Assembly: GCA_964416665.1 (NCBI GenBank)
Contig: CAYQFA010000001.1
Location: 1-38,081 of the forward strand
Length of the DNA: 38,081 bases
Origin: an uncultured Candidatus Saccharibacteria bacterium
Lineage (GTDB): Bacteria; Patescibacteriota; Minisyncoccia; UBA6257; 2-01-FULL-56-20
Direction of reading: 5' to 3'
The notes under the pieces: generated by a model
What the model was told of the DNA's origin: nothing
The model's database searches: none
Seen by the model: the letters and a program-made list of their open reading frames with translations, nothing else
Translations under genes and position numbers: made by a program
Shown: positions 1-34,549 of the stretch, one piece after another
Layout of the letters: each line of letters starts with the position of its first letter
Numbering within the stretch: position 1 is the stretch's first letter

Positions 1-726
1 GGTGGGGGGGGGGGGGGGGGGCAGGGGGGCGGCGGTCACGGTTCATCAGGCGGGGGTGGTGGGCATGGCGTTCCGGTAAACGCAAATGCCAACGCGGCGG
101 CGGGTGGTGGGCATGGCGGCGGAGCGCATGGCGAAGACTATACAAAAGAGCAGGCGTCGGCCGAGCTCGATCGACAAGGGTTTGGCGGTGGAAACACCTC
201 TCAGGCGCCCGCGCAAGCGGCGGGTCCGGCCCAGGCTCCGGCTGAAAGTGCCAAGAATAACGCCGCGGCGAAACTTGACGCCATGGGATTTGGAGGTGGA
301 AACGCCTCAGCGCGCGCGCAAGCCCCAGCGGCAACGGCCTCAGCAGCAATACCACCGACGCAACCCACACAGCCGCGGCATTTCAGCGGCGACATGCACA
401 CCGATCGTCCAAGCACGACGAATTCAAGTAACACGCAACAAACCACTGCTGCCGCACCCGCGACAGGATCCTCATCAGCACCAGCACCGACATCGGCTCG
501 GCCGGTCATAAAAGTGAACGTCGAAGCCCCCGATCAGCCCGACATCAAGATCAATCAACGGACGGCCATTAATGTGAACCAGCCACCGGTTCCGTCGCCG
601 AGCGCCGGGACTCCACATAGCACCCTTGGACGAGGCGTGGTCATCGAGATGAAAAAACCGACGTCCGATACGGGAGCTAAGATCGAGGAAACCAATAGAA
701 CCACTGAAAACGACAAGGCGGCGTAA
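1..726 (+). CDS. 5'-truncated Gly/Ala/Pro/Thr-rich low-complexity protein (hypothetical)
   Basis: Frame 1 is open from nt 1 (GGGGGGGQGGGGHGSSGGGGGHG...) to TAA at 724-726. The listed ORF 283..726 is only its internal-Met tail. Two copies of an (A/K)(E/K)LDxxGFGGGN motif lie at 160-195 and 268-303. No recognisable family. Confidence 0.5.
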   Translation, partial: GGGGGGGQGGGGHGSSGGGGGHGVPVNANANAAAGGGHGGGAHGEDYTKEQASAELDRQGFGGGNTSQAPAQAAGPAQAPAESAKNNAAAKLDAMGFGGGNASARAQAPAATASAAIPPTQPTQPRHFSGDMHTDRPSTTNSSNTQQTTAAAPATGSSSAPAPTSARPVIKVNVEAPDQPDIKINQRTAINVNQPPVPSPSAGTPHSTLGRGVVIEMKKPTSDTGAKIEETNRTTENDKAA

Positions 727-739
727 ATAAAAAATTACC

Positions 740-1852
740 ATGCCAGAAAAACCTCCAGCAAGCGAGAACGATACCGAGCAAAGAGAGGATTCTGATGCCC
801 GCGTCGGGAAATTCGCGGTTTGGGAAACCAATGGCACTCTGCGCTTTAAGGAGCCGAAGCAAATTCGAAGGATAGAGGAGGATCCAAAGTCAAAACAAAA
901 ATTTGCTTTCTTTGACGAATTCCCCACCGGCATCCCATTGGATGAACTGGTCTTTGAAAAATCCGCCGAAGAGTTGGAATCAGAAGAAAAAACAAAGAAC
1001 ACCAAGGGACGGGGTGGCGCTTATTATAGTGTTGACGCTGAACGAGGGCGATATAACGCAAAAAAAGAAAAGCTGTACCAGGAACTTAACAGGATAGCAA
1101 AAGAGGTGAGGGAAATGCCCATTGCAGGAGAACCGCACGAAGAGGGATATGATCCAGAGGCAAAAGCAAGAGCCGAGGCCGAACTTGACCGGCTGGGGTT
1201 CGGAGGTAGGCTGGAAAAAGCCGACAATCTTCAGGAACCCAAAGGAGCAGATGCCGAACAACATCAAGGGCTGAACGAAGCAACCGAGGAAGAGCCGGAG
1301 GAAGATGGCGGGACGAGGAGCGGGCCCCTCAATCCTTTTGCGGGCACGAAAGAGCAACCGCTTACCAAAGGGGAAATTCGCGCCGAAAAATTTCTTTTAG
1401 CGATCGAACGCCAATATGTAAAAATCAAGAACTTTCTCCTTTTCCGCTACAAACCGAAAGATGAGGCGGTGTTGAGAAGGCAGTGTGAAACTCTGGTCAA
1501 AGCGGGGCAAGCGGAATTCGTTGGCACGATGAGAATCCCCAGCGAGGAAGATATGAGAGTGACGCCGAAGAAGAAGAAAAGATTCAAAAAGGTGGACCAC
1601 TATGAAAGCCATACCGAGGGGCATGACGAAAAAAAGAAGGACGACGAGTGGTATGAGGAAGAGGAGGAAACGAAGCACGAAAAATATAAACCATCCTACG
1701 CCGAGTACCGGAGGATAAGGCACATATACGAAGGACACCAAGAGCTGTACTTCACCTACAAGGCCGTAGGCGTTTACGACGAAATAGGGGAGTTCACTGG
1801 GAAGATGCGGCTTTATAAAATCTTTAGAGGACCAAAACATAGTAACGCGTGA
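740..1852 (+). CDS. hypothetical highly charged (E/K/D-rich) soluble protein, first full gene of the T4SS-like operon
   Basis: 370-aa ORF with an ATG 14 nt after the previous stop. No TM segment or signal peptide. Contains AELDRLGFGG (1178-1213), related to the motif in the upstream ORF. No family recognised. Confidence 0.6.
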   Translation: MPEKPPASENDTEQREDSDARVGKFAVWETNGTLRFKEPKQIRRIEEDPKSKQKFAFFDEFPTGIPLDELVFEKSAEELESEEKTKNTKGRGGAYYSVDAERGRYNAKKEKLYQELNRIAKEVREMPIAGEPHEEGYDPEAKARAEAELDRLGFGGRLEKADNLQEPKGADAEQHQGLNEATEEEPEEDGGTRSGPLNPFAGTKEQPLTKGEIRAEKFLLAIERQYVKIKNFLLFRYKPKDEAVLRRQCETLVKAGQAEFVGTMRIPSEEDMRVTPKKKKRFKKVDHYESHTEGHDEKKKDDEWYEEEEETKHEKYKPSYAEYRRIRHIYEGHQELYFTYKAVGVYDEIGEFTGKMRLYKIFRGPKHSNA

Positions 1853-1865
1853 TATACTTAAACCA

Positions 1866-3041
1866 ATGATCCCCGTCGATAAACTCACTGAGAAAAATAT
1901 TGAAAAGCGTTTTGGTATCTTGCCGCCGGCGCTGAAAAAAGCGCTTACTTCTGACGCCAATCAAAAAATGGCATTGCGAATCTGCCAAGACAACCAGATC
2001 AACAACGAAGAAGAGATTCTTATTGTCCAACAGCTCGCCGCATTGGTAATCCTAGGATTTCTTCATCCTGACGACCTCGGCGACGAGATCAATGATGAAT
2101 TGGCTCTTGGTGATCCACAGCGCGCCGACGCCATAGCGGAAGATTTCAATGCCAAGTTATTTTCTCCTCTGCGATCCGATTTGGATGAGAACTATAAGCC
2201 GCTCTCGGGGACCGTATCGAAACCGGCGCCGGCAGTTTTTGCCCCACAAAAAAATTCCAAACCGTTCGTTGTCGATACTTTTTCAGCGCCACCGACCGCA
2301 CCAAAAAAAGACGAGTCTGATAAGGGCTGGTCCAAAGCGCGTTCGACGACGACGGTGGTCGCAACCGATGTTTCAAGACCCGCTTCTTTCGCAAATATTC
2401 CGAAGCCTGCGCCGGTATCACCCACCTCACCCATTCCATCCATAACGCCCGTGGCGCCCGTCGCTCCAAATATCTCACAGCCGCCAACCATCCCGGCGGC
2501 ATCGAAAGCTCCGGCCGAACCGGCGCCGATGATGATGGCGGGAACAAGATTCAGTAGTGCGCCACAAAAAAATTCTGATTTCCATCTTTCAAACATAAAC
2601 AGCGGGGCGCAGGTGACATTCGAGCAGGCGAAGCCGCAGGAAAAGGTGATGCCAGCCGTCATTGAATTCCCTAAGCCGACACAGACTACTCCATTAAGAC
2701 CATCACCATCGGTTCCACCGACGGCGGCGAAAGGCGCGATCCATTACACGGAGTTTGCGCCGACATTTAAGGTGGCGCCCGCGGCAAATTCGGGAGCGCG
2801 GAACGTGACCGAGATCACTTCGAGCGCAAAACCGCCCCTGGCGCCGCCGATTCCCATGCCACCCGCCGCACCAAAACCGGTGACGTTCGCCACGACCATC
2901 GTGCCGCCCGTACAAGTGCCCGCAACGCCTCCGAAACCGCCGACGCCAACTCCATCAGCATCTCCAACAGCTCCCTCGCCGCTGGCGCAGCAACCCCCAC
3001 AACCGCCCAAAGCAAAAGTGATCACAAAAGATTTTCTTTAG
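1866..3041 (+). CDS. hypothetical protein: ~110-aa N-terminal globular region followed by a ~280-aa Pro/Ala/Thr/Ser-rich extended region
   Basis: 391-aa ORF in tight operon spacing. The C-terminal two thirds is PxP-rich low complexity (…PPKPPTPTPSASPTAPSPLAQQPPQPPKAK). Confidence 0.6.
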   Translation: MIPVDKLTEKNIEKRFGILPPALKKALTSDANQKMALRICQDNQINNEEEILIVQQLAALVILGFLHPDDLGDEINDELALGDPQRADAIAEDFNAKLFSPLRSDLDENYKPLSGTVSKPAPAVFAPQKNSKPFVVDTFSAPPTAPKKDESDKGWSKARSTTTVVATDVSRPASFANIPKPAPVSPTSPIPSITPVAPVAPNISQPPTIPAASKAPAEPAPMMMAGTRFSSAPQKNSDFHLSNINSGAQVTFEQAKPQEKVMPAVIEFPKPTQTTPLRPSPSVPPTAAKGAIHYTEFAPTFKVAPAANSGARNVTEITSSAKPPLAPPIPMPPAAPKPVTFATTIVPPVQVPATPPKPPTPTPSASPTAPSPLAQQPPQPPKAKVITKDFL

Positions 3042-3096
3042 CCCGATCAGGACTCGGCGCTTGTTCGTTGCCGCTCCATCGTCTAGAATCTAAGTA

Positions 3097-3591
3097 ATGC
3101 AGTTTCAAGTACCTCAATTCATCGACACCGAGGACAAAGTTGTCGGACCCTTCTCGCTCCGGCAGTTTATGTATATCGGCATTGCCGGGTTCCTCAGCGC
3201 GATCTTTTATTTTTTCGTCCAGACGTGGCTCTTTGTCATTATGGCGATAATTTTTCTCGGCACCGCCGGAGCGATCGCCTTCGTGAAGATCAACGGCCAA
3301 CCGGTCGCCAAAATAATCGCTGCGGCCGTGAATTTCTACTGGAAACCCCAAGTGTATATCTGGAGGTCGGAAGCGGCGCCGATATCGCAAAAAAACGCCA
3401 CGCACGAGGGCGGTTTCTCGCTCGAGGCCGTCGCGTCGGGAATGGCGCTCCATAAAAGCTGGGAGGGCCTTCAAACGGGCACCAAGATTCCGGATCGCGC
3501 ATCTATCGAGCAGAAAATTGGCGCGCGCTATCAAATACTTGAGCGGGTAACGGGCGACCGACAGGCCGCAAAGCGCGTCGACTATCGCTAA
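3097..3591 (+). CDS. PrgI-family (VirB3-like) membrane protein of Gram-positive-type T4SS
   Basis: The N-terminus MQFQVPQFIDTEDKVVGPFSLRQFMYIG followed by two hydrophobic helices is the pattern I recall for the PrgI family (Pfam PF12666). The gene sits immediately upstream of VirB4. Confidence 0.7.
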   Translation: MQFQVPQFIDTEDKVVGPFSLRQFMYIGIAGFLSAIFYFFVQTWLFVIMAIIFLGTAGAIAFVKINGQPVAKIIAAAVNFYWKPQVYIWRSEAAPISQKNATHEGGFSLEAVASGMALHKSWEGLQTGTKIPDRASIEQKIGARYQILERVTGDRQAAKRVDYR

Positions 3592-3619
3592 GCGGAGCAA
3601 ATTGTGAGATAATAAGACC

Positions 3620-4315
3620 ATGGCGACCCCATTAAAACAGGATGCGGGCAATTCCCTTGACCTCGTTGACATCAAAGAGATCAAGAGCAGCACCGTGATC
3701 GTCAAGGACGGTAGTTTCCGCCAGATCATCATGGTCGGCGGCCTTAATTTTTCACTCAAGTCCGAATCGGAGCAATCGATCATCACGGGAGGATATCAGA
3801 CGTTCTTGAACAGCATAGACTTCCCACTGCAGATCCTCATCCACTCCCGGAAAGTGAATATTGATGGGTATATCGCCACACTTACCGCGCGAAGGGATGA
3901 GGAAAAAACGGCGATACTTCAAAACCAAATAGACGAATATATAAATTTCATAAAGGGGTTTGTTGAAAAGAACGCCATTATGGAGAAGATTTTCCTAGTG
4001 GTGATCTCGTACCATCCGAATGCGATCAGCGGGGGAGTGAAGAGCGTCCAAAGCTCCCTTTCGTTGCCATTCTTCGGCGGTGGCAAAAAAAAGGATGATG
4101 CGAGCGCAAAGGCGAAGGTGAAAGAAGACGCTGATAAGGTGTTTGCGGAGCAATTGGCGCAAATGGGCCAGCGAACCACGCAAGCCATCAACGGCCTCGA
4201 GAGCATCGGCCTTGAGACGACCCTCTTGAACGACGAACAACTGATTGAACTTTTTTATAATTTTTACAACCCACAGACCATCGAAAAGAAAACCGTACCG
4301 AGCACCGCTCAATAA
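3620..4315 (+). CDS. VirB4 N-terminal-domain-like protein (separate ORF)
   Basis: The motif DLVDIKEIKSSTVIVKDGSFRQIIMVGGLNFSLKSESEQ…FLNSIDFPLQILIHSRKV resembles the N-terminal ~200 aa of Gram-positive VirB4/ConE/Orf16-type ATPases. The ORF ends at TAA 4313-4315, 5 nt before the ATPase ORF and in a different frame. Confidence 0.6.
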   Translation: MATPLKQDAGNSLDLVDIKEIKSSTVIVKDGSFRQIIMVGGLNFSLKSESEQSIITGGYQTFLNSIDFPLQILIHSRKVNIDGYIATLTARRDEEKTAILQNQIDEYINFIKGFVEKNAIMEKIFLVVISYHPNAISGGVKSVQSSLSLPFFGGGKKKDDASAKAKVKEDADKVFAEQLAQMGQRTTQAINGLESIGLETTLLNDEQLIELFYNFYNPQTIEKKTVPSTAQ

Positions 4316-4320
4316 TCACC

Positions 4321-6048
4321 ATGCCAGACGAACAAGACAACAAGCCGCAAGATGTAAAAAAGATCATCGCTCCCGCAGGAGCGCAGGTCTCTCCGAACTC
4401 TCTGAAGATCGGCGACAAGATCGCGAAAACTTTCTTTATCCTTTCTTACCCCCGCTATCTTTCGACCGGCTGGTTCGAGCCGATCATCAATCTGCCGAAC
4501 TTGTTCGATGTCGCCATTTTCATCAATCCCGTCGATACCGGCATCGCGCTTAAAAATCTTCGCAAGAAGGCTGGCCAGCTGGAATCGGAAATGAATGAGG
4601 AACAGCAAAAAGGCCTTGTGAGAAATCCGGTGCTCGAGACGGCCATCAACGACGTCGAAGGGCTGCGCGACTCGCTCCAACAGTCGCAGGAAAAAATGTT
4701 CAACACCGGGGTGTACCTCACTATTTATGCGGACGATCAGGACGAGCTCGCGCGGCTGGAAAGTAAGATAACCACGATGATGGAGGCTAAGCTTATTTAT
4801 ATCAAACCGGCGCTCTTCCAGCAGCTTGAAGGACTTTCCTCCATTCTTCCGCTGGCGAATGACCAGCTGCAGGTATATAACCCGATGAACACGAGCCCGA
4901 TTTCGTCGTTCTTCCCGTTCGTCTCCGAAGATCTCTCCTCCAACCAGGGCATCATGTATGGCATTAATCTGAACAACAACAACCTCGTCATTTTTGACCG
5001 CTTCTCGCTTGAAAATGCGAATCAGGTGGTGTTCGCAAAGTCCGGATCGGGAAAATCGTACACGACAAAACTCGAGATCATCCGTTCGCTCATGGCCGGC
5101 GTGGAGATGGTCCTTGTGATCGACCCAGAAAATGAATATGGGAAACTTGCCGAGACCTTTGGCGGAAGCATGTTCAATATTTCCCTTTCCTCCCACGAGC
5201 ACATCAACCCATTCGAGATCCCCGTCATCCCCGAGGGAGAGTCGCCGTCGGACGTGCTCCGCTCCCACATCGTCACGCTTGCAGGTCTCATCAAACTGAT
5301 GGTCGGCAAAATAACACCGGAAGAGGACGCCATCCTCGACCGCGCCATCAGCGAAACCTACGCCTCGCGCGAGATCGTCCCCGGCGCCGACTTCGCCGGC
5401 AAAGAGCCTCCGCTTTTAAGCGACCTTGAAACGGTCTTGCGCAACCTTGATGGCGGAAAGGAGGTCGCCGAGCGGCTTTATAAATACACCAAAGGCAGCT
5501 TCTCCGGCTTTTTGAATCAGCCGACCAACATTGACGTCAACAACCGCCTCATTATCTTTTCTATCCGCGATCTCGAGGAAGAGCTGCGGCCCATCGGCAT
5601 GTTCGTCGTCCTTAATTTCATTTGGAACATCATTCGCGCAAAACTCGCCAAGCGACTCCTTTATATTGACGAGGCATGGATCATGATGAAGAACGACGAC
5701 AGCGCGACCTTCTTGTTCGGCCTCGTAAAGCGCGCCCGCAAATATTACCTCGGCGTCACCACGATCACGCAAGATGTGGAAGATTTCCTGCGCTCGCCGT
5801 ACGGCAGGCCGATCGTCACGAATTCGTCGCTGCAGTTGTTGCTCAAGCAAGCTCCCGCCACCATCGATATTGTTGCGAAAGCGTTCGAGCTCACCGACGC
5901 GGAAAAGAACTTTCTTCTTGGCGCGGAGGTCGGCACCGGCATCTTCTTTGCCGGCAAACGCCACGTAGCGATCCAGATCGTCCCGTCATATTTTGAGGAT
6001 CAAATCATCACCACCAATCCGGAGCAGCTACTCGAAGAAAAAGAGTAG
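4321..6048 (+). CDS. virB4: VirB4-family type IV secretion ATPase (central and C-terminal ATPase part)
   Basis: Has LKIGDKIAKTFFILSYPRYLSTGWFEPII, typical of the Gram-positive VirB4 mid-region. Walker A is AKSGSGKSYTTK and Walker B is RLLYIDEAW. Length is 575 aa. Confidence 0.85.
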   Translation: MPDEQDNKPQDVKKIIAPAGAQVSPNSLKIGDKIAKTFFILSYPRYLSTGWFEPIINLPNLFDVAIFINPVDTGIALKNLRKKAGQLESEMNEEQQKGLVRNPVLETAINDVEGLRDSLQQSQEKMFNTGVYLTIYADDQDELARLESKITTMMEAKLIYIKPALFQQLEGLSSILPLANDQLQVYNPMNTSPISSFFPFVSEDLSSNQGIMYGINLNNNNLVIFDRFSLENANQVVFAKSGSGKSYTTKLEIIRSLMAGVEMVLVIDPENEYGKLAETFGGSMFNISLSSHEHINPFEIPVIPEGESPSDVLRSHIVTLAGLIKLMVGKITPEEDAILDRAISETYASREIVPGADFAGKEPPLLSDLETVLRNLDGGKEVAERLYKYTKGSFSGFLNQPTNIDVNNRLIIFSIRDLEEELRPIGMFVVLNFIWNIIRAKLAKRLLYIDEAWIMMKNDDSATFLFGLVKRARKYYLGVTTITQDVEDFLRSPYGRPIVTNSSLQLLLKQAPATIDIVAKAFELTDAEKNFLLGAEVGTGIFFAGKRHVAIQIVPSYFEDQIITTNPEQLLEEKE

Positions 6049-6060
6049 CTCTATCCTACC

Positions 6061-6753
6061 ATGGAAGAAAATTCTCAATCAGAGATTTCCGCCGTAACCT
6101 GGATATTGGTCTTCGTTGTTTGTGTCATTTTTGATGTCTTGAGTTTGATACCTATTGTGGGCGACATAGAGGATATCCCAGCGGCAATCATCTTTATTCT
6201 CAATCTAGTCTTCGGAGTCGGGAGCGCTCTTTTGATCGTGCAGGGAATCGTCATGGTGCTTAAGGCCATCCCGGGCCTGCAAGAACTTCCGTTGTGGACC
6301 GCTGGGGCCATCGTCGCTTTGATTCTTGAAAAGATTCCGGCCGCAAAACCCGCCTTGCAGGTTGCCCAGGAAGCCGGAGCGGTCGAGGGAGGTGGTGCGG
6401 GCGAGATCGGCGAAGCTGGAGCTGCCGCCGAAGGCGTTGCGGCCGGTGCCGAAGAGGCGGGAGGGGCTGCGGCGCAAGCAGGGACGACCGTGGAGGGTGG
6501 CGCCGCTCAAGGAGGCATCCAAGGCGAAGGCGCTGCGGCTGGAGGAGCGCCGGAAGGCGCCGAAGCGGAACAGGCGCCGTCAGGCGAGAACCCCGAGGGT
6601 CTTGGCGAAGAGGGAGGAGACGCGATGAAGAATCTCCAGGAAAATCTTCTGGAGCCGGCATCAGAAGAAGAAGCGCCACCGGCACCAGGTCCCTACCAGG
6701 AGGACAAAGAAAGCGACGAGGATGAGGACGATGAGCTCCCTTTGGCGGCATAG
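6061..6753 (+). CDS. membrane protein (about 3 TM helices) with a long Gly/Ala/Glu-rich polyacidic tail
   Basis: The N-terminal ~100 aa are hydrophobic (VTWILVFVVCVIFDVLSLIPIVG…). The following ~130 aa are G/A/E low complexity ending in DKESDEDEDDELPLAA. No family recognised. Confidence 0.6.
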   Translation: MEENSQSEISAVTWILVFVVCVIFDVLSLIPIVGDIEDIPAAIIFILNLVFGVGSALLIVQGIVMVLKAIPGLQELPLWTAGAIVALILEKIPAAKPALQVAQEAGAVEGGGAGEIGEAGAAAEGVAAGAEEAGGAAAQAGTTVEGGAAQGGIQGEGAAAGGAPEGAEAEQAPSGENPEGLGEEGGDAMKNLQENLLEPASEEEAPPAPGPYQEDKESDEDEDDELPLAA

Positions 6754-6806
6754 ACCAACACGGCATCGGGCGGGTATAACTGGCGTAAGAATATTTTTTG
6801 CGATTT

Positions 6807-6815
6807 TGGTATAAT
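6807..6815 (+). promoter_or_regulatory. extended -10 promoter element (TGgTATAAT) internal to the operon
   Basis: The sequence ttTGgTATAAT lies 13 nt upstream of the ATG at 6828, in the only >50-nt gap of the operon. Confidence 0.4.
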
Positions 6816-6827
6816 AAAAGCAATCAC

Positions 6828-7538
6828 ATGAAAAGGAGTTTCGTTTTGGAAAAGCTTATTCTGATGGGATTGCTCTCTTTGGGATTCTTCGCAGTAGCCA
6901 CGCCATTTGTACACGCGCAAACATCGTCCGATCCCCAGTTCCTTGTGACATGGAAGGCCGTCGGAAGCTACGTTCCTCCCTCTTATGTCGGCAAAGCTCT
7001 TCCGTCGTATGGGTCCAACATCACCGCCTCATTTGAGTTGGTTTCCCAGGGAAAGATACTTAATATACAGAACGAGACCATTTATTGGTATCTTGATGAT
7101 AACTTGATCGGCGGCGGAGAAGGTATCCAAAACATCACATTTCCTCCCGTTGGGGCAGCGCCAGACTCCCTTGAGCTAAAAATCCAATTGCCGGACTACG
7201 CAGGCGGTTACCTCACCCACACGATCGAGATTCCTTTCGTGACCCCGCAGGTGGTTCTCTATTCGCCATTCCCCGGCTCCAAGTTTTCGGCAAATCCCTT
7301 GACCATATCAGCCCTCCCTTATTTCTTCAACGTCTCATCAACGTCTAATCTTTCATACACGTGGGCAGTGAACGGACAGACGGGGGGTGGAGCTGAAAAC
7401 CCTGAAGAAGCGCAGGTTACGCTTCCGGCGGGGACGCCGGCGGGAACCGGTATTGATGTTTCGGTCAAGGTTGAAAATCCCATCGGCTCGACCATTGCCA
7501 CGGCGGACGAAAATTTGGTTTACGAAAATCAATTATGA
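6828..7538 (+). CDS. secreted protein with two tandem beta-sandwich-like repeats (hypothetical)
   Basis: The ATG at 6828 gives MKRSFVLEKLILMGLLSLGFFAVATPFVHA, a signal peptide; the track start 6798 is a TTG. There is an internal duplication: PQFLVTW…YWYLDDNLIGGGEG versus PQVVLYS…YTWAVNGQTGGGAE. The stop overlaps the next start (ATGA). Confidence 0.65.
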   Translation: MKRSFVLEKLILMGLLSLGFFAVATPFVHAQTSSDPQFLVTWKAVGSYVPPSYVGKALPSYGSNITASFELVSQGKILNIQNETIYWYLDDNLIGGGEGIQNITFPPVGAAPDSLELKIQLPDYAGGYLTHTIEIPFVTPQVVLYSPFPGSKFSANPLTISALPYFFNVSSTSNLSYTWAVNGQTGGGAENPEEAQVTLPAGTPAGTGIDVSVKVENPIGSTIATADENLVYENQL

Positions 7539-8281
7539 GAACGCTTTTAAGTTTCACCATCTTTATAATATTGGCCGCGGGGATGGTGGGACAAGTTTCC
7601 ACGGTCCACGCTGTCACGATCTCTGCCGTCATCCCCGGCTCTAACTCGAGCGCGGGGACTACGGGGACTGCCGGTCCCGGCGATTACATCGCTAATTTCT
7701 ATCAGTTCGCATTGTTGATCGGCGGGGTTCTCGCTCTCGCGGTCGTGGTCTATGGCGGTATTCTTTATATGTCCTCGGTAGGGAATCCTTCAGGGCAAAG
7801 CGAGGCAAAGGCATGGCTCTTGGCTGCTTTATGGGGCATCCTGCTTCTTGCCGGAGCCTATCTCATCCTCAAGATCATCAACCCCCAGTTGGTGAACCTG
7901 ACCCTGCCGAGTCTGCAAAGTACGGGGCCAACGGCGAACCAAGTGACGGTGCCGGGTTCAACAACCGCTGGAACAACATCTGGCGGGAGTAGTAATCCTA
8001 GCACTGGCAATGCTCCAGCCGCCTCGACATGCCAGGCAACTTCCAATGGTGGCAGCAGCGGGAGTTGCCAAAGCCTCCCTGATGGCACAGTCCAGAATTG
8101 CTGCAATACTAATGGTAGTGCGGTCTGCCAAACAAACGCATGCGCCGCCGCTACGCCTGCTTGCGGATCCACTGACTCACAAGGAAACTCGCAAAATGGA
8201 TATTGCTCGTCCGGTTATTGCTATTCTTATATAGGATTTAGTCAAAAGACTATTTGGAACTGCAAAACTACTGTTTTATAA
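7535..8281 (+). CDS. T4SS pilin (TrbC/VirB2-like, PF18895-type) with Cys-rich C-terminal extension
   Basis: A signal peptide is followed by two hydrophobic helices (FYQFALLIGGVLALAVVVYGGILYM … AWLLAALWGILLLAGAYLILKIINPQL), as in CPR 'T4SS pilin' proteins. The last ~85 aa contain 10 Cys. Confidence 0.7.
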   Translation: MRTLLSFTIFIILAAGMVGQVSTVHAVTISAVIPGSNSSAGTTGTAGPGDYIANFYQFALLIGGVLALAVVVYGGILYMSSVGNPSGQSEAKAWLLAALWGILLLAGAYLILKIINPQLVNLTLPSLQSTGPTANQVTVPGSTTAGTTSGGSSNPSTGNAPAASTCQATSNGGSSGSCQSLPDGTVQNCCNTNGSAVCQTNACAAATPACGSTDSQGNSQNGYCSSGYCYSYIGFSQKTIWNCKTTVL

Positions 8282-8285
8282 ACAC

Positions 8286-9584
8286 ATGAAACGCTATATT
8301 TACATCATTATTGGAATAGTCGTCGCAGCGATCATCGCAATCATTATTTTGTTCTTTTTGAAAGGAGGTTCGGCGCTGTCCGGGCTTCTGCCGGCAAGCA
8401 TCACTGGTTCTCTTCCCTCTGTTGGTACACAGGGCAGCAACGGCTCAGGAGGAACAACGGGGTTTGGTTCCTCGACAACAGGCGGAACGATCGGCTCAAT
8501 TGGACAAAGCGGTCTCGTAAAAAGTTTCAACATTGTCTCGAATGGCCCGATTCTGGATTACTTTGTTGATACGCAGGGTAAAATTACTGCCATTCAACCA
8601 TCGGGCGAAGTAATCACGGTCTCAGGAAACCAGTCCTCAACGATCAGCTCGAACCAGATCGGCGGAATCATATCCGCAAGTTTTTCTTATGACGGCAAAA
8701 AGATCTTGGTCAGTTTCGGCGACCCAAGCGACCCAGAAGCCGCCGTGTTTGATGTCACAAGCAGCACGTGGACAGCCCTTCCCCAGGGACTGTTCTCGCC
8801 GCAGTGGTCCCCCTCAAACTATCAAATAGCATTCCTTAATGAGTACGGCTCCGGGGTCGCGGTGTTAGACACCATAGATGCGACGAATCCCAATAAGCCC
8901 GGCGTGACGGCACTGCTCTCTCTGAACGCTACCGACCTTTCGTTGCAGTGGATCTCCAAAAACCAGTTTGTCCTGTCCGATAAGCCGAGCGTACAAACAA
9001 CGGGATCGTCGTGGCTTTATAACAGCCAATCGAAAACATTGGTGCCAATCGAGTATGAGATGCTTGGCCCTGAGAGTGTTTGGGATGAATCGGCAACAAC
9101 AACCCTTGGGTTGGCCTATTTTGAAACTTCGAACAGTCAAAGATTAAAGCTCCAACTGGTAGATGCCAGCGGGAACGACGTTCACGATCTAAGCTTCCTC
9201 ACGCTGCCGACAAAGTGTCTTTTCAATGACCAAACGTCAACGGTCGCCCTCGCCACCACCACGTCGGCCCTCGCCACAACAACCGCCAGCTCTTCACCTG
9301 CGGTAGCAGCATCAACAGTCACCTCTACCCCATTCCTTTACTGCGGGGTGCCCTCCGACCCGAACCAACTTTCTTCCGCCCAGCTTCCTGACGATTATAA
9401 CGATGGCGCGCTGTTTACTTCCGACGAAATAATAAAGCTTAATGCGGACACCGGAGCTCTCAGCACGCTTTGGAATGATTCGACGCAAAACGTCGATGCC
9501 ACCGATCTGAAATTCTTCAACAATTCGTTGTTCCTGATCAACCGCTACGATCAAAAACTTTATTCGCTGACATTCGCGCAATAA
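8286..9584 (+). CDS. N-terminally membrane-anchored extracytoplasmic protein, possible TolB/PD40-like beta-propeller
   Basis: One N-terminal TM helix (YIYIIIGIVVAAIIAIIILFF) and a G/S/T linker. A PD40-like segment is present (FSPQWSPSNYQIAFLNE). This is the last gene of the operon. Confidence 0.55.
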   Translation: MKRYIYIIIGIVVAAIIAIIILFFLKGGSALSGLLPASITGSLPSVGTQGSNGSGGTTGFGSSTTGGTIGSIGQSGLVKSFNIVSNGPILDYFVDTQGKITAIQPSGEVITVSGNQSSTISSNQIGGIISASFSYDGKKILVSFGDPSDPEAAVFDVTSSTWTALPQGLFSPQWSPSNYQIAFLNEYGSGVAVLDTIDATNPNKPGVTALLSLNATDLSLQWISKNQFVLSDKPSVQTTGSSWLYNSQSKTLVPIEYEMLGPESVWDESATTTLGLAYFETSNSQRLKLQLVDASGNDVHDLSFLTLPTKCLFNDQTSTVALATTTSALATTTASSSPAVAASTVTSTPFLYCGVPSDPNQLSSAQLPDDYNDGALFTSDEIIKLNADTGALSTLWNDSTQNVDATDLKFFNNSLFLINRYDQKLYSLTFAQ

Positions 9585-9620
9585 AAAACACCACGGGATA
9601 ACTATCCCGTGGTGTTTTTT
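9583..9620. terminator. bidirectional rho-independent terminator between convergent genes
   Basis: AAAAAA-CACCACGGGATA-ac-TATCCCGTGGTG-TTTTTT: a 12-bp perfect stem flanked by an A-run and a T-run. It overlaps both stop codons. Confidence 0.8.
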
Positions 9621-10056
9621 ATTCGCCGATCGGCATCACGATAACATATCGTTCCTTGCCTTCTCCTGAACTTTCAGTTTTCACGTCTGGGTGAATAGCG
9701 AGCTCAACGTGCACGATCCTCCGCTCGTAGGAATTCATCGCGGGAAGAGAAACTTTTTGCTTGGTGCTTGACGCTTTCTTTGCCGCGGCCTTTGCAAGCG
9801 CAGCGATCAAAACCTCCCGCTCATGGCGATAATTATTGATATCAATAAAAATGCTCTCTTGCTGCTGTTTCTTCGCTACCATCTGTAAAAGATGGTTCAT
9901 CGCCTCCACTATCGCCGGTAGGTTTTCTTTGAGCAAAGCCTGGTCTTCGTAAATAAATATAAGGCCCTTTTTCTCCTCTGGTTTTATCTCGACGCGGTAG
10001 TCCTTGAAGCCGATGAGATTTAATATTGTTTTAATAAATGTCTCAACGTTGTCCAT
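9619..10056 (-). CDS. jag: Jag/KhpB-type R3H RNA-binding protein
   Basis: C-terminal R3H motif (NSYERRIVHVELAIHPDVKTES). Sits in the conserved position downstream of yidC. ATG at 10056 is preferred over the TTG at 10092. Confidence 0.75.
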   Translation of the reverse strand: MDNVETFIKTILNLIGFKDYRVEIKPEEKKGLIFIYEDQALLKENLPAIVEAMNHLLQMVAKKQQQESIFIDINNYRHEREVLIAALAKAAAKKASSTKQKVSLPAMNSYERRIVHVELAIHPDVKTESSGEGKERYVIVMPIGE

Positions 10057-10156
10057 GGCGATAACTATTCCACACTCTCGCGCTAAAATCAAGCGCTCCC
10101 TTATTTTTGGGCTGAATCGCGCGGATAATAAAGACTGGAAAAGGCAGAGCTATTCG

Positions 10157-10867
10157 TTAAGCGCCGTATTTTTTCTGCAGGTGCTGGTTGATAAAATATT
10201 GTTGAACCACTGAAAAAAGCGATGAGATCAGCCAATAGAGACCTATCGCTGAGGGCAGATTGTAGAAAATAAGGATGGTGATAAGAGGAGCGACGAACGC
10301 CATCTGGCGGGCTATTTTCTCGGCAGCGGAAGGCGTACTGCCGGCAGGCGCGCGATATATGGCAAGGCGCGCCTGGAAATATTGGGCGAGCGCCGCCAAT
10401 AGAATAAGGATTATATTGGGTTTTGTCAGGTTGACAAGGCCAAGGAAAAGCCCGTTGATGGTCTGTGGTTGGGGGATGAAGGAATAGAGGTTGCTGAATT
10501 GCGCGACGCCGAACCCCGAGCGCACCACCCAATAGAAAGCGAGCATGATCGGGATCTGAATGACAAGAAGGATAATGCTGGAAAATGGATTGACCCCGTG
10601 CTCTTTGTAAAGCTCCATGAGCGCCTGCGACTGTTTCTGCATGTCGTCCTTGTGCATCTCCTGGATCTTTTTCACCTTCGGCTGGATGCGCTGCATCATC
10701 ATCTGTTGCTTCGCGCCGGTATGAAAAAGCGGATAGAGAATAAAACGGATGAGGAGGGTTGTTAAAATAATTGCGATACCAAGATCGTGCCACGCAAAAT
10801 TCTCATAAAAAAAGATCAGAATATTGAAGATCGGGCGATAAAATATCTGTTGGTAGAGATAGACCAT
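10157..10867 (-). CDS. yidC: YidC/Oxa1-family membrane protein insertase
   Basis: 236-aa polytopic protein of short YidC type (…MQRIQPKVKKIQEMHKDD…LYKEHGVNPF…). Lies in rnpA-yidC-jag synteny. Confidence 0.85.
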   Translation of the reverse strand: MVYLYQQIFYRPIFNILIFFYENFAWHDLGIAIILTTLLIRFILYPLFHTGAKQQMMMQRIQPKVKKIQEMHKDDMQKQSQALMELYKEHGVNPFSSIILLVIQIPIMLAFYWVVRSGFGVAQFSNLYSFIPQPQTINGLFLGLVNLTKPNIILILLAALAQYFQARLAIYRAPAGSTPSAAEKIARQMAFVAPLITILIFYNLPSAIGLYWLISSLFSVVQQYFINQHLQKKYGA

Positions 10868-10879: not shown

Positions 10880-11197
10880 TTATAAACGGATGGTTGCTGC
10901 TGCCTTGGTGAGCGCCCGACGAAACTCTTGCTTTGTGAGTTCGTTGACCTTGGGAAAAAAGATGATCAAGAAATCATTACCCGGCATAATAAGGTCGGCG
11001 GACACCATCTTTGCCTGGCGACGCCAAAAATTCCTTTTTACCGCACTTTTATGCACCGCCTTTCCCACAATAACTCCCACTCTCCTTTTTTGAAGATTAT
11101 TCCTCTTTGCCCGAAGCGAGAAATAGGGAGTTCGCGCGAACTTAAACATTCGCGACTCAAACTCCTTTTTTGGTAAACGATTGGGGATTTGGGACAT
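10880..11197 (-). CDS. rnpA: ribonuclease P protein component
   Basis: 105 aa and basic, with KAVHKSAVKRNFWRRQAK (RNR-type motif). Sits between rpmH and yidC. Confidence 0.8.
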   Translation of the reverse strand: MSQIPNRLPKKEFESRMFKFARTPYFSLRAKRNNLQKRRVGVIVGKAVHKSAVKRNFWRRQAKMVSADLIMPGNDFLIIFFPKVNELTKQEFRRALTKAAATIRL

Positions 11198-11519: not shown

Positions 11520-12872
11520 ATGGATCTTGAACAAATGTGGCAGTCAACGCTGGGGGAGATGGAGATTCAGCTTTCGCGTGCAAATTTTGCCACCTGGCTT
11601 AAAAACAGCCATCTCGTGGATAAAAAAGATGACACTCTCGTCGTTGCCCTTCCCAATAACTTCACAAAGGTTTGGGTCGAGGATAAGTATCAGAAAAATA
11701 TTCTTGGCATCATAAGGGGTTTGGATGGTTCGGTAAAAAAACTTGAATTCGTCGTCCACAACAAGGCGACCGAGCCATTGAAGGCCGCTGCGGCGCCAAA
11801 AGAGGCGCCGAAGGCCGACCTTATTGACCTGGATTTCAAAACGGATCCTGAGACAGGCCTCAATCCTAAATACACCCTCTCCTCATTTGTCGTCGGGCCT
11901 TCAAATGAATTGGCGTATGCCGCCGCGACTGCCATTACTGAGGAAATTGGGAAGAAATATAATCCTTTCTTTGTTTATGGCGGCGTCGGCTTGGGAAAAA
12001 CCCATCTTATCCAGGGCATCGGCAACGAGATCGTCGCAAAGTACCACAAAAAAGTCCGTCCTAAATATGTTTCTTCTGAACAATTTACCCGTGACATTGT
12101 TTGGGGCATCCGCAACGGGCGCATAGAGGATATAAAAAAGAAATATCGCGATGTTGATGTGCTCATTATCGACGACATCCAGTTTATTGGTGGCAAAGAC
12201 AAGACCGAAGAGGAATTCTTCCACACATTTAACGCACTTTATGAGAACAACAAGCAGATTATCATCTCGTCCGACCGGCCGCCACAATCCCTGCCAACCC
12301 TCGAGGAACGCCTCCGTTCGCGTTTTGAGGGTGGCTTGATAGCCGATGTGGCGTATCCCGAATTTGAGATGCGCGTAGCGATCATTAAGAGCAAACTCCA
12401 GGATATGAATAAACAATTAAGCGATCCTGTTATCAACCTTCTTGCTAAAAAACTAAGAAAGAATATTCGCGAACTCGAGGGGGTGTTGAAAAAGATCATT
12501 TTTTATCAAGAGCGCAAACAAACCGAGATAACCGAGAAAATCGCCGAGGAAATCATAGAGAAAGCGACCCAAAATCTCACCAAGAAGGTGAATGATGCCC
12601 AAATTCTCAACGCCGTCGCCGAATTTTTCAACATCACCATCGACGATCTTCTTAGCCACAACCGAAGGAAGGAGGTTGTTCAGCCGCGGCAGATCGCCAT
12701 CTATCTTCTTCGGGATATCTCGGATCTTTCCTATCCGTATATTGGTGAAAAGCTGGGGAGAGATCACACCACCGCCATCCATTCCTACGAAAAGATCAAC
12801 CATGAAATAAACAGAAATCCAGGACTTAACCAGAAGATATTAATGATCAAGGACATAATTTACAAGAGTTAA
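11520..12872 (+). CDS. dnaA: chromosomal replication initiator DnaA
   Basis: Walker A GGVGLGKTHL, Walker B LIIDDIQF, and the C-terminal DNA-binding helix (RDHTTAIHSYEKI). Confidence 0.97.
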   Translation: MDLEQMWQSTLGEMEIQLSRANFATWLKNSHLVDKKDDTLVVALPNNFTKVWVEDKYQKNILGIIRGLDGSVKKLEFVVHNKATEPLKAAAAPKEAPKADLIDLDFKTDPETGLNPKYTLSSFVVGPSNELAYAAATAITEEIGKKYNPFFVYGGVGLGKTHLIQGIGNEIVAKYHKKVRPKYVSSEQFTRDIVWGIRNGRIEDIKKKYRDVDVLIIDDIQFIGGKDKTEEEFFHTFNALYENNKQIIISSDRPPQSLPTLEERLRSRFEGGLIADVAYPEFEMRVAIIKSKLQDMNKQLSDPVINLLAKKLRKNIRELEGVLKKIIFYQERKQTEITEKIAEEIIEKATQNLTKKVNDAQILNAVAEFFNITIDDLLSHNRRKEVVQPRQIAIYLLRDISDLSYPYIGEKLGRDHTTAIHSYEKINHEINRNPGLNQKILMIKDIIYKS

Positions 12873-13006: not shown

Positions 13007-14119
13007 ATGAAATTCATCGCACTCCGTTCAAATATCAAAGAAGCTATTTCTCTTATTGAAAAGGCGGTTGGAGAAAACAGCAACCTCCCTATTTTAAAAA
13101 ATATCCTTATTGAAGCGAAGGATGGTGCGATAGTGTTCAGTGCCACCAACTTGGAAATTGCCATCAGCCACAAGGTGATGGGAAAGGTGATCGAGGAAGG
13201 GAAGGTTTCCCCTCCATTAGCCCTCTTTTCCAACCTTATTGCCAATATTCCCACCGACCGCTTGAATTTTGAGACCAAAGAGAACGATCTTGAAATTGCA
13301 ACCGACAATTATAGCGCCGTCATCCATGGATTATCACCAGAGGACTTTCCATTGACGCCGACCGTTAAAAATCAAAGCCGCTACCTGGAAATCAAAGGGG
13401 TTTTCCTTAAAGAAGCCATCCAACAAACCATTGTTGCCTCCCAATTTTCCGACATCCGCCCGGAGCTTAATACCATCCTTTTTGAATTTTCGCTTGAAAA
13501 ACTTATCCTCGCCGCCACCGACGGGTTTCGTCTCGCTGAAAAATCAATTCCTTCAAGCGTCTTTACTTCGTCGCAAAAGGAGCCGTTCAAGATGTTGGTT
13601 CCCCTTAAGACCAGCGTGGAGATGTCTCGTATTGTGAAAGACGAGGATGTGGTGCGCATTTTTTGGGACGAAAACCAGATTCTCATAAAGACCGAAACCA
13701 CCGAGCTGATCTCACGGCTCATTGAGGGCGCCTTCCCCGACTATTCATCTATTGTCCCGCACGAGTTCGATGCGGAGATCGTGGTCAACCACGAGGAGTT
13801 TGTCGGCGCCATTAAGCTTGCCGGTGTCTTTGGGCAAAAAAATAGCGAGATCAAAATAAAGATCCACTCGAACAAAAAAGCGATCGAGATAAGTTCTGCA
13901 GACCAATCGCTTGGCGAAAACAATCACATCCTTCCCGCAAAAATAAAAGGAGAGAGCGAGGAGGTGTTTTTCAACTGGAGATATCTTGGCGATTCGATGA
14001 AGGGGATAAGAACCGAGGATGTCTTTTTGGGTTTCCAAAACGAGGCCGGGCCGGCGCTCATCCGTTCTACCACTGATGGCTCGTATTTTTATATTCTCAA
14101 ACCGATCTTGAAGTCCTAG
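13007..14119 (+). CDS. dnaN: DNA polymerase III beta sliding clamp
   Basis: 370 aa starting MKFIALRSNIKEAISLIEKAVG…, with three-domain length. Lies immediately downstream of dnaA. Confidence 0.95.
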   Translation: MKFIALRSNIKEAISLIEKAVGENSNLPILKNILIEAKDGAIVFSATNLEIAISHKVMGKVIEEGKVSPPLALFSNLIANIPTDRLNFETKENDLEIATDNYSAVIHGLSPEDFPLTPTVKNQSRYLEIKGVFLKEAIQQTIVASQFSDIRPELNTILFEFSLEKLILAATDGFRLAEKSIPSSVFTSSQKEPFKMLVPLKTSVEMSRIVKDEDVVRIFWDENQILIKTETTELISRLIEGAFPDYSSIVPHEFDAEIVVNHEEFVGAIKLAGVFGQKNSEIKIKIHSNKKAIEISSADQSLGENNHILPAKIKGESEEVFFNWRYLGDSMKGIRTEDVFLGFQNEAGPALIRSTTDGSYFYILKPILKS

Positions 14120-16636: not shown

Positions 16637-17104
16637 TCAATAGCGCTCGCCCGAGCAAAAAATGGCGAGCGCAAGCGCGTCGCTCGCGTCGTCGATCACT
16701 TTTAGGTCTTTTTTGCCGAGAATGAGCCGCACCATTTTGAGCACCGCTTTTTTATCGGCAAAGCCGTACCCTGTCACCCCCAATTTCACTTCATTCGGAG
16801 TGTATTCTTTTATGTCGACGCGGCACTCCTTTGCGGCAAGGAGCACGACGCCGCGCGCCTGGGCGACCGCGATGGCCGTTTTTTGGTTCTTTGCGAAAAA
16901 TATCTTTTCTATGGCCACGACGTCGGGTTTGTGTTTCTTGATAAGGCGGTCGATCTCGTTTTTCGTCTCTTCGAGTGCGGAGATGTCGTCTTTTGTTTTG
17001 ATATTGAAAATCCCCGCGGCAACATATTTCGCCGTTCCGCGCTCCGAATCCACCACGCCATAGCCGATCCTTCTACTTCCCGGGTCAATACCAAGAGCTA
17101 TCAT
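16637..17104 (-). CDS. ruvC: crossover junction endodeoxyribonuclease RuvC
   Basis: MIALGIDPGSRRIGYGVV… (catalytic Asp motif). 155 aa with a RuvC-type C-terminus (DDASDALALAI). Confidence 0.92.
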   Translation of the reverse strand: MIALGIDPGSRRIGYGVVDSERGTAKYVAAGIFNIKTKDDISALEETKNEIDRLIKKHKPDVVAIEKIFFAKNQKTAIAVAQARGVVLLAAKECRVDIKEYTPNEVKLGVTGYGFADKKAVLKMVRLILGKKDLKVIDDASDALALAIFCSGERY

Positions 17105-17175
17105 AAGGCGATTAATATTTTTATAGCGCGCTTCATAGTGTTTGTTATGCCGTTAGTATATCGCCTTGCGTGGGC

Positions 17176-17220
17176 AAAAAAAAGCAGCTCGCAATCCGTG
17201 TTTTATTACGGACCGCGAGC
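17176..17220 (-). terminator. rho-independent terminator of the 17243..17911 gene
   Basis: The minus strand reads GCTCGCGGTCCGT-aataaaac-ACGGATTGCGAGC-tgcTTTTTTTT. The stem is 13 nt per arm with one mismatch, followed by a U-run of 8. Confidence 0.75.
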
Positions 17221-17242
17221 CGCGAGCGAACAAGAGATATCT

Positions 17243-17911
17243 TTACTGTGCCACGACGGTCCTCCGGTAGCCGGTGGCTTTGGTGCCGCTGATGGTGATC
17301 AGAACGACCCGGCGACCTTGGTATTGGGTCGTGTCGATCTTGCCGAAGAAAATAGGCAGATCGTTGCAAAGCTGTTCGCTCTGCAGCGGGTTTATGTTTT
17401 TGACGGCCTTGAACCAGTCGTCGAGCTGATGCTTCGAGCCAAGCCTCCCGTTCCGGCCGGTTGCGTCGTGTTGATCGAGCCAGCGCTTGATGTTCTCAAC
17501 GCGCTGCTTGATCTCCGTCACGCCGGGATTTTTTCCGAGAAATTCCGGAGTGATGGCCAGGTCGCCGAGAAGGGCTTTGTTCATCGCCCAATCCGGAAGA
17601 CCTTGCGCCAGGTTCGGGAGGACGTTCACGACGGGCGAGGTACATACCCGCACGTTGTAGTCCACTTCCGACTGTCCGTTGAGACCAAAGGAGGAATCGA
17701 TGTATTTTCTTTCGAAAATTCCGCCCGGTTCCGTCAGCCTTCTGTCGATGGTCCCGTTCATCACGGGGCCGATCCTGCTGTCGGTGTTGTTGATGATCTT
17801 CACGTCCACCTGCGGGACGTTCCCCACAAGGAATCCAACGGTTTGAGCGTGGGAGGTTGTCGCAAGGACAAATCCCAGGATAGCGATGACAAAGAGCGCG
17901 ATGCGTTTCAT
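17243..17911 (-). CDS. secreted hypothetical protein
   Basis: Signal peptide MKRIALFVIAILGFVLATTSHAQT. 222 aa with its own terminator. No family recognised. Confidence 0.65.
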   Translation of the reverse strand: MKRIALFVIAILGFVLATTSHAQTVGFLVGNVPQVDVKIINNTDSRIGPVMNGTIDRRLTEPGGIFERKYIDSSFGLNGQSEVDYNVRVCTSPVVNVLPNLAQGLPDWAMNKALLGDLAITPEFLGKNPGVTEIKQRVENIKRWLDQHDATGRNGRLGSKHQLDDWFKAVKNINPLQSEQLCNDLPIFFGKIDTTQYQGRRVVLITISGTKATGYRRTVVAQ

Positions 17912-18051
17912 TTCTCTCTCCGATCTTCAAGGGATTTTCCACCCCTCTGCGTATATGATTATACCATTAAAATGCCATATTTGTCAATGACCTTAAAAAC
18001 CGGTTAAAACTTGCTTGAAGTGAATGGTTTGAAAGGGTACTATACAGAGAC

Positions 18052-26875: not shown

Positions 26876-27114
26876 GCGAGACGTGACTTTAGGCGGCTGG
26901 CCTTATTCTTTTCAATGACGTTCGTCTTTGCAGCCTTGTCGAGAGCCTTGAACGCTGCCGGAAGCGCCTTTGCGGCCTCATCGAGCTTCTTTGCGGCTAC
27001 AAGCTTGCGGTAATCAATAACAGCCTTCTTATAGGCCTCTTTTTTGACCACATTTCTCGTGTGGCGGGTCTTGTTCTGGCGGAGCGCTTTCTTTGCTGAT
27101 GTAGTGATTGGCAT
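26839..27114 (-). CDS. rpsT: 30S ribosomal protein S20
   Basis: MPITTSAKKALRQNKTRHTRNVVKKEAYKKAV… is a canonical S20 N-terminus. 91 aa. Its 3' end overlaps holA convergently by 37 nt. Confidence 0.9.
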   Translation of the reverse strand: MPITTSAKKALRQNKTRHTRNVVKKEAYKKAVIDYRKLVAAKKLDEAAKALPAAFKALDKAAKTNVIEKNKASRLKSRLAQLINKSTKASS

Positions 27115-34050: not shown

Positions 34051-34059
34051 AGGGCCCCC

Positions 34060-34224: not shown

Positions 34225-34233
34225 ATTTAAAAA

Positions 34234-34543: not shown

Positions 34544-34549
34544 AGCCTT

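Follow-up and report, generated by a model that had tools for sequence, protein, structure and literature searches.

The first 9,584 nt of the 38,081-nt stretch analysed here (hereafter the window, meaning the whole stretch) contain the downstream two-thirds of a chromosomal type IV secretion system (T4SS) locus, which belongs to the monoderm, MPF_FATA-derived "Patescibacteria T4SS". We assign a probability of roughly 70% to the reading that this is a vertically inherited Paceibacteria locus whose machine most likely serves contact-dependent exchange with a host cell, with import favoured over export. The locus represents an already published system and no new kind, and its detection in an earlier note on this DNA, made from the letters alone, is an independent rediscovery. 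Details not previously described are the accessory proteins with predicted tandem immunoglobulin (Ig)-like and beta-propeller folds and the variable Cys-rich extension of the pilin. The ORF coordinates agree with the ten same-strand coding sequences (CDS), the first of them truncated at its 5' end, that had been listed in the earlier note. The CDS are consecutive and tightly packed, with intergenic spacings between -4 (a 4-nt overlap) and 55 nt, or 74 nt where the ATG at 6828 is taken as start:

g01: 1..726, + strand; last ~241 residues (C-terminal) of a polytopic membrane protein of ~700 aa; the frame is open at nt 1 and lacks a start
g02: 740..1852, + strand; highly charged soluble protein, lineage-specific, no family match
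g03: 1866..3041, + strand; conserved N-terminal domain (~120 aa) and a Pro-rich tail of variable sequence; lacks a signal peptide
g04: 3097..3591, + strand; PrgI/VirB3-family protein forming a two-helix membrane hairpin (PF12666)
g05: 3620..4315, + strand; TrsD-like protein of 231 aa, corresponding to the VirB4 N-terminal domain as a separate gene
g06: 4321..6048, + strand; VirB4 ATPase of the MPF_FATA/CD1110 type that lacks an N-terminal domain of its own
g07: 6061..6753, + strand; small membrane protein with 3-4 helices and a Gly/Ala/Glu-rich acidic tail, as judged from hydropathy
g08: 6828..7538 (ORF from 6798, the ATG at 6828 being likelier), + strand; secreted protein with two predicted tandem Ig/fibronectin type III (FnIII)-like beta-sandwich domains
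g09: 7535..8281, + strand; VirB2/TrbC-type pilin with a ~130-aa Ser/Thr/Gly-rich, Cys-rich C-terminal extension
g10: 8286..9584, + strand; membrane-anchored extracellular beta-propeller, predicted to have ~7 blades

Scans for promoters and terminators gave the same result as shuffled sequences, and the tight spacing is therefore the only evidence for an operon. For comparison with relatives, one genome per GTDB species was scanned; 112 stretches encoded a relative of VirB4, and the best 80 were kept as loci L001 to L080.

The PrgI, TrsD and VirB4 core

The product of g04 matched the PrgI family of Pfam (PF12666; E 1.6e-11, 45 bits against a gathering score of 27) and has two hydrophobic segments within residues 23-63; PrgI was present in 75 of the 80 loci. 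The VirB4 ATPase encoded by g06 exceeded the cut-off of the NCBIfam model for the CD1110 family of VirB4 (NF045971; E 3.4e-121, 405.8 bits against 325), and its C-terminal domain aligned with the solved VirB4 domain of Thermoanaerobacter (PDB 4AG5; 1.9e-39). Both nucleotide-binding motifs are intact: AKSGSGKS (Walker A, residue 239) and LLYIDE (Walker B, residue 446).

The earlier note had counted VirB4 as two ORFs. Two ORFs are indeed present, but they are not a disrupted gene; they represent the known pair of TrsD and VirB4. The product of g05 matched the TrsD/TraD models of NCBIfam below their cut-off (NF041427 TrsD, 9.8e-6), aligned to positions 102-252 of the VirB4_plasma model and 16-115 of the CD1110 model, and has a precomputed match to the TraC-like family PF26593 on record. 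The product of g06 matches VirB4 models only from about position 183 onward. Since g05 covers the N-terminal positions of the VirB4 models and g06 the remainder, both ORFs together correspond to a full VirB4. A phmmer search of the TrsD-like protein against PDB returned only a spurious match at 0.041. TrsD and VirB4 were separate ORFs in all 80 loci, where all three relative frames occur and the two ORFs overlap or lie apart by a few bases; this rules out a frameshift or a pseudogene. Judged from these loci, the split is an ancestral and fixed gene arrangement.

With the pilin described below (PF18895), these profile matches bear out the three product types that had been recognised by eye, namely PrgI/VirB3, VirB4 and a VirB2/TrbC-type pilin. 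The other six products reached no threshold in the Pfam and NCBIfam scans.

Conservation and inheritance of the locus

All 80 loci derive from metagenome-assembled genomes of Paceibacterota/Parcubacteria type, with VirB4 identities of 55-90%, which serves solely as a proxy for a place of this VirB4 in the Patescibacteria clade. Complete chromosomes of 0.88-0.90 Mb are among them, in agreement with the assumption that the DNA comes from a reduced genome of CPR (candidate phyla radiation) type. Wherever a contig reached far enough, tblastn recovered g03, PrgI, TrsD, VirB4, g08, the pilin, g10, jag, yidC, dnaA, dnaN and a penicillin-binding protein (PBP) in this order, and the order was colinear in 80 of 80 loci; a loss of gene order among related genomes, which would have spoken against a conserved machine, was thus not found. 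The end of virB4 lay 3.4-6.3 kb from dnaA in 47 loci. Furthermore, the identity of VirB4 to the copy in the window correlated with the identities of DnaA, YidC and PBP (r 0.96-0.97). Colinear order and a VirB4 divergence that tracks the divergence of housekeeping proteins therefore argue for inheritance with the chromosome and against a mobile element, indicating at the level of sequence comparison that the locus is vertically inherited and is not an integrative and conjugative element (ICE).

Profile scans of the ORFs in the window found no VirD4, relaxase, integrase, VirB1 or VirB8 to VirB11, consistent with the absence of VirD4, relaxase, VirB1 and VirB8-B11 that had been noted by eye. No relaxase domain was present in the scanned ORFs, while oriT was not searched for, and no coupling protein of the VirD4 or TcpA type was found in the 38-kb window, the rest of the genome being outside this search. 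With relaxase, coupling ATPase and integrase all missing from its surroundings, the locus would therefore encode a machine other than a conjugation system. We regard conjugation by this locus as very unlikely, in support of the earlier proposal that this is not a conjugation system.

The opposite view would be an ordinary ICE or its remnant, with relaxase, type IV coupling protein (T4CP) and integrase located just outside the window. VirB4 is of the conjugative CD1110/MPF_FATA type, and the 5' edge of the window truncates the locus; mobility genes immediately beyond it had been named in the earlier note as a sign of an ordinary ICE. The source contig stops at nt 1, and the upstream sequence could be read in relatives only. 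In five of these, the ~10 kb upstream contain an ORF of ~574 aa, an ORF of ~263-290 aa and two large envelope proteins; the first two were read, from their N-terminal sequences only, as UvrD/PcrA-like and KsgA-like, respectively. No relaxase or integrase was seen among these ORFs by inspection, no dedicated profile scan having been made. The insertion site is constant, with the locus between the ksgA-side genes and jag-yidC-dnaA in every locus long enough to reach these flanking genes, and no mobility genes follow downstream in the window. An ICE is thus largely ruled out by synteny and co-divergence, and we consider it highly improbable.

ORF 1 and the VirB6-class candidate

A VirB6-type polytopic channel had been reported as absent and the Gly-rich product of g01 as unassignable. 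Both statements need revision; the apparent absence is probably an artefact of truncation. An exhaustive HMMER search identified a homologue of 704 aa (P0187), residues 485-704 of which align with residues 4-241 of g01 at 53% identity (E 6e-27). Residues 43-415 of P0187 in turn match (hhalign E 3.5e-92) the profile of a polytopic family whose gene lies upstream of g03 homologues in the relatives. Because P0187 joins a g01-like tail to this family, g01 is the C-terminal tail of such a membrane protein of ~700 aa, first Gly-rich and then Ala/Pro/Thr-rich in composition, and its N-terminal membrane domain lies beyond the end of the contig. The source contig (119.5 kb; JGI 3300041809, Ga0455670_0001261) ends within one base of the start of the window, and a second contig extends the sequence there by just 400 nt. 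The break at nt 1 falls inside a GGN repeat coding for poly-Gly, and we infer that assembly may have stopped because of this repeat.

In relatives, two large ORFs lie directly upstream of the g03 homologue. The one nearer to g03 belongs to the polytopic family; its members have 500-880 aa and at least seven hydrophobic segments, and their tails are long and hydrophilic. Both full-length tails that were inspected, those of L003 and L007, end Gly-rich. Among 20 members, matches to classes of polytopic subunits were all sub-threshold: TrbL/VirB6 of Pfam in 3 (best 0.0036), TrbL_4 of Pfam in 1, and from NCBIfam CD3337/EF1877 in 6, Mbov_0396 in 3 (best 9e-6) and MMCAP2_0566 in 1. These classes are polytopic membrane subunits of conjugative elements from Gram-positive bacteria and Mycoplasma. 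A tblastn search with the conserved core of the polytopic family found no match in 72,556 plasmids. We read the polytopic protein as a probable VirB6-class subunit.

The other ORF encodes a conserved protein of ~720-790 aa with a single N-terminal transmembrane (TM) anchor and a weak C-terminal match to PKD (L003 2744-5110, L007 2654-4837 and equivalents). It follows the ORF read as ksgA, precedes the VirB6 candidate and probably belongs to the locus as a further component.

The pilin and its Cys-rich extension

The product of g09 has a signal peptide and two hydrophobic helices and matched the T4SS pilin family PF18895 with E 6.6e-5 and 23.4 bits, against a gathering score of 26.6. Of the aligned orthologues, 24 of 24 matched PF18895, the best at 4e-10. 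In the alignment, the core is conserved and the tail hypervariable; in g09, this tail (residues ~120-248) consists of a linker rich in Ser, Thr and Gly and a C-terminal module rich in Cys. The cluster contains a single pilin gene and not an array.

Homologous long pilins of relatives have 12-14 cysteines (L005 7824-8666, L020 13169-13897, L028 4186-4938, L034 8103-8813, L067 13600-14343). The occurrence of the module is patchy, and other relatives have short pilins of 117-167 aa. In a distant Paceibacteria branch (L047-L078), the propeller gene is followed by an extra gene for a protein of ~330 aa with two hydrophobic segments and 14 cysteines (for example L047 14907-15893 and L055 14870-15898), which might represent a second pilin-like protein bearing such a Cys-rich module.

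Accessory proteins

Two of the remaining products could be assigned predicted folds. The AlphaFold2 model of g08, calculated from an alignment of 50 sequences (mean confidence score, pLDDT, 84.8), consists of a signal peptide and two beta-sandwich domains, for which Foldseek returned the Fn3 modules of CbhA (6e-8), the adhesin SiiE and the phage protein Hoc. A profile of g08 gave nothing meaningful against PDB sequences. The gene was found in 57 of the 80 loci. The model of g10 (60 sequences, pLDDT 81.6) comprises an N-terminal TM helix (residues 2-26), a disordered Gly/Ser/Thr linker of ~50 residues (26-75) and 29 strands over residues 78-430. Its top Foldseek matches were all beta-propellers (WD40, tricorn, prolyl oligopeptidase and TolB; E ~1e-7), and sequence profiles gave just weak single-blade matches to TolB, PD40 and DPPIV_N. 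A reading of g10 as a VirB8-like protein with NTF2 fold is rejected in view of the propeller model. Members of the family have in common a pair of conserved cysteines and the motif LPDD[YW]. The family is retained down to VirB4 identities of ~55% and reaches the distant Paceibacteria branch at ~57% (hhalign probability 99.3, E 2e-20). The models are thereby in line with the two-repeat secreted protein and the membrane-anchored propeller-like protein that had been proposed from the sequence.

Pfam and NCBIfam scans of g01, g02, g03 and g07, as well as of six g07 and four g03 orthologues, gave only low-complexity noise. Homologues of g03 occupy the same position, always just upstream of prgI, in ~30-40 loci (tblastn and phmmer). 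At the position of g07, an ORF with TM segments, typically of 220-330 aa, follows virB4 in most of L001-L044, indicating a conserved place with fast-diverging sequence. The range of g02 is limited to the close lineage of the window, L010 and L015: among the 80 loci, phmmer detected a homologue in L010 only, and tblastn with the L010 protein additionally in L015. A motif, AELDRxGFGG, occurs twice in the g01 tail, once in g02 and also in P0187, and is missing from the other loci; this sharing suggests that g02 arose from a g01-type tail or binds the same partner. None of g02, g03, g07, g08 and g10 is VirB8-like (NTF2) or a hydrolase.

Proposed mechanism and alternative functions

Building on the gene identities, intact ATPase motifs, conservation and vertical inheritance described above, and on the two predicted folds, we infer how a pilus could be assembled, what the accessory proteins might do and in which direction material might be moved. 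Following the roles of their families, the VirB6-class polytopic protein and the PrgI/VirB3 hairpin would form a membrane platform that docks the VirB4 ATPase, with TrsD supplying the VirB4 N-terminal domain in trans. By analogy with other T4SSs, VirB4 would extract the VirB2-type pilin from the membrane and polymerise it into a pilus or conduit. In the F-pilus, the C-terminus of the pilin faces the outside of the filament. The Cys-rich C-terminal module of g09 could similarly be displayed on the pilus surface, possibly as a host-binding knob. The small polytopic protein, the secreted tandem-Ig protein and the tethered beta-propeller would probably either brace the machine where it crosses the wall or attach to the surface of the host. 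A surface filament or cell-contact machine, as put forward in the earlier note, is plausible in this light and agrees with published speculation.

The machine most likely mediates contact-dependent exchange with the host cell. We lean towards import because no substrate-receptor ATPase accompanies the locus, and also because its recognisable components (B2, B3, B4 and B6) parallel the core of membrane and pilin parts in the uptake system ComB. Import is therefore favoured over effector export; sequence data cannot separate import, export and pure adhesion.

Export of effectors through the same apparatus, by which Paceibacteria proteins would reach the interior or the surface of the host bacterium and subvert it, is possible if rather unlikely. 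Export has been put forward as a speculation for the Saccharibacteria system (PMC10633639; PMC11665869), and the Ptl and Brucella systems are known examples of T4SSs that export proteins without a T4CP (PMC12102498). Speculatively, substrates or adaptors could be sought in the charged, lineage-specific g02 and the Pro-rich g03; the window, however, contains neither a coupling ATPase to recruit cytoplasmic substrates nor a candidate effector with a recognisable domain. Moreover, the known exporters without a T4CP use Sec-dependent delivery to the periplasm, a route that differs in a monoderm cell.

A VirB2 filament with Cys-rich modules that just attaches to hosts, without any transport, appears improbable. 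The hypervariable C-terminal extensions of the pilin, Cys-rich modules included, and extracellular accessory proteins with Ig and propeller folds, of a kind typical for binding proteins, would fit such an adhesion pilus. On the other hand, retention of a full VirB3/B4/B6 translocon in a genome of <1 Mb suggests more than attachment, a PilB-type ATPase is encoded in the window (18052-19728), and adhesion of Patescibacteria is already served by type IV pili (PMC12857230).

In a more specific version of the import model, the VirB1 and VirB8-like parts with which the Gram-positive T4SS spans the wall would have been replaced in Paceibacteria by the tandem-Ig protein, the propeller and the Cys-module pilin, which act as a host-specific docking tip for the import of host macromolecules, and variation of the pilin would set the host range. 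We consider this version speculative and unlikely; if true, variation of the pilin module would play the role that arrays of pilin genes have in Saccharibacteria.

Several points weigh against the reading of the locus favoured here. We know of no experiment on any Paceibacteria T4SS. The pilin copy of the window itself stays below the Pfam gathering score, the VirB6 assignment is based on sub-threshold matches, and the profile of the polytopic family had 0 matches among PDB sequences. The folds of the accessory proteins are generic and imply no role in a T4SS, and synteny alone ties these proteins to the system. A survey from 2025 found many VirD4 homologues, mostly far from virB4 (PMC12102498), and a VirD4 homologue may be encoded elsewhere in the source genome. 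According to a recent review, no Patescibacteria T4SS has been observed with a pilus (PMC12857230), and the role of these systems was called "completely unknown" in a perspective from 2024 (PMC11665869).

The Patescibacteria T4SS is among the few large machines kept by minimal, host-dependent bacteria and is essential in the sole species tested. For Paceibacteria, the present locus gives a clean list of parts: fixed separate TrsD and VirB4 genes, a VirB6-class protein (probable, as discussed) with a long low-complexity tail, two class-wide accessory proteins with confident predicted folds and a variable Cys-rich pilin module. These are concrete targets for structural work and genetics.

Genomic setting

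The cluster is followed by genes typical of the replication origin, identified by Pfam matches:

jag: 9619-10092, - strand
yidC: 10157-10867, - strand
rnpA: 10880-11197, - strand
dnaA: 11520-12872, + strand
dnaN: 13007-14119, + strand

The end of the cluster lies 1.9 kb from the start of dnaA and 3.3 kb from the spacer between dnaA and dnaN, close to the distance of about 3 kb from the inferred oriC that had been estimated before. Eleven DnaA boxes with at most one mismatch were found, two of them within the dnaA-dnaN spacer, against 5.35 +/- 2.6 expected; 4 of 100 shuffles reached 11, and the enrichment is not significant. Proximity to the origin is therefore deduced from gene content.

Past the origin genes, the remaining 24 kb contain mostly housekeeping genes, among them those for a PBP1-type enzyme, RuvA, RuvB, RuvC, the PilB-type ATPase, CTP synthase and a Mur ligase, along with several ORFs without family match. 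The PilB/T2SSE-type ATPase is solitary, with no adjoining PilC or PilM-O genes recognised, and a protein with a lamin-tail domain is encoded nearby (21031-21603). The genes for RuvC, RuvB and RuvA are dispersed (16637, 19954 and 27883) and do not form one operon. Sizeable ORFs without Pfam match outside the cluster are located at 16883-18007 (+), 26087-26875, 27044-27715, 35779-36693 (-) and 36896-37873 (-). A search of the window with Rfam matched a tRNA-Arg alone, tRNA-Arg(CCG) at 33001-33073. Directly after it, the GC content falls to ~0.45 over 2 kb, compared with ~0.55 in the flanks, and this dip holds a gene with a NERD nuclease domain and a LexA/S24-like gene, whereas a uracil-DNA glycosylase (UDG)-family gene beyond the dip sits at a recovered GC content of 0.54. 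The region 33001-35876 may be a small island.

Comparison with known systems

The description of such clusters as functionally uncharacterised, given in the earlier note, is out of date, because a Saccharibacteria homologue has been found essential (PMC10633639) and the repertoire of the phylum was published in 2025 (PMC12102498). In addition, a review from 2025 lists the Patescibacteria systems as a new T4SS type (PMC12857230).

Among more distant systems, the pGO1/pIP501-type elements (TrsC-TrsD-TrsE) share with the present locus the same order of genes for a small membrane protein, TrsD and VirB4, and a VirB4 of monoderm type (PMC12102498). Unlike our locus, they reside on plasmids and encode a relaxase, a T4CP, a VirB1 hydrolase as well as VirB8-like proteins, and they lack a VirB2 pilin. 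The ICEs of Mycoplasma represent another T4SS of wall-less or monoderm cells in which a pilin-like protein is paired with VirB4. Matches to their families were all far below the cut-offs: the pilin to Mbov_0395 (0.041), the polytopic family to Mbov_0396 (9e-6), and TrsD (7e-11) and VirB4 (4e-90) to Mbov_0397. In contrast to the present locus, these ICEs are mobile elements with transposase or relaxase functions of their own.

To our knowledge, ComB of Helicobacter pylori and the archaeal Ced system are derived from T4SSs and work without a relaxase or VirD4. As systems for DNA import they provide a precedent for import (PMC11665869). VirB7-10 form part of ComB, a system of diderm cells, and none of them is present here. 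The scores of our cluster for CedB (7.7e-9, 34.7 bits) and CedD (13.5 bits) were far below the cut-offs of 700 and 600 bits, respectively, and no CedA-like protein was identified.

The closest functional information comes from Southlakia epibionticum, in which transposon sequencing showed an origin-proximal T4SS cluster to be essential for epibiotic growth (Wang et al., 2023; PMC10633639). This essentiality is independent of ComEC (PMC12857230). The cluster of strain ML1 (SEML1_0006-0019) contains PrgI, a TrsD-like protein, VirB4, a TrbL/VirB6-like protein, six pilins and a lysozyme, and lacks a relaxase and coupling proteins (PMC10633639). It thus shares with our locus the origin-proximal position, PrgI, the TrsD-like protein, VirB4, PF18895 pilins and the lack of relaxase and coupling protein, and probably also a polytopic protein of TrbL/VirB6 type, which is giant in Southlakia. 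The six tandem pilins, the lysozyme/peptidase in the role of VirB1 and an NTF2-like (VirB8-like) protein of Southlakia were not found here, whereas the propeller protein of our locus is not listed in the Southlakia cluster. An adjacent, essential exported protein with two Ig domains (SEML1_0005) resembles g08 in architecture.

In a survey of 3,035 genomes (Quinonero-Coronel et al., 2025; PMC12102498), most VirB4 proteins fell into a Patescibacteria clade inside MPF_FATA. TrsD was the commonest partner of VirB4, followed by PrgI/VirB3, VirB6 and VirB2-like pilins, relaxases were rare, and virB4 of Paceibacteria was located near dnaA, dnaN, rnpA, rpmH and ksgA (PMC12102498). Our locus agrees with the systems of this clade in its MPF_FATA VirB4 with TrsD directly upstream, in PrgI/VirB3, the VirB2-like pilin and the probable VirB6-like protein, in the lack of a relaxase and in its chromosomal position beside dnaA, dnaN, rnpA and ksgA. 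While the survey leaves the other neighbours of virB4 unannotated, the present analysis resolves a tandem-Ig protein, a propeller, a small polytopic protein and a Pro-rich protein with conserved N-terminal domain, and, instead of an array, one pilin gene whose product carries a Cys-rich C-terminal module.

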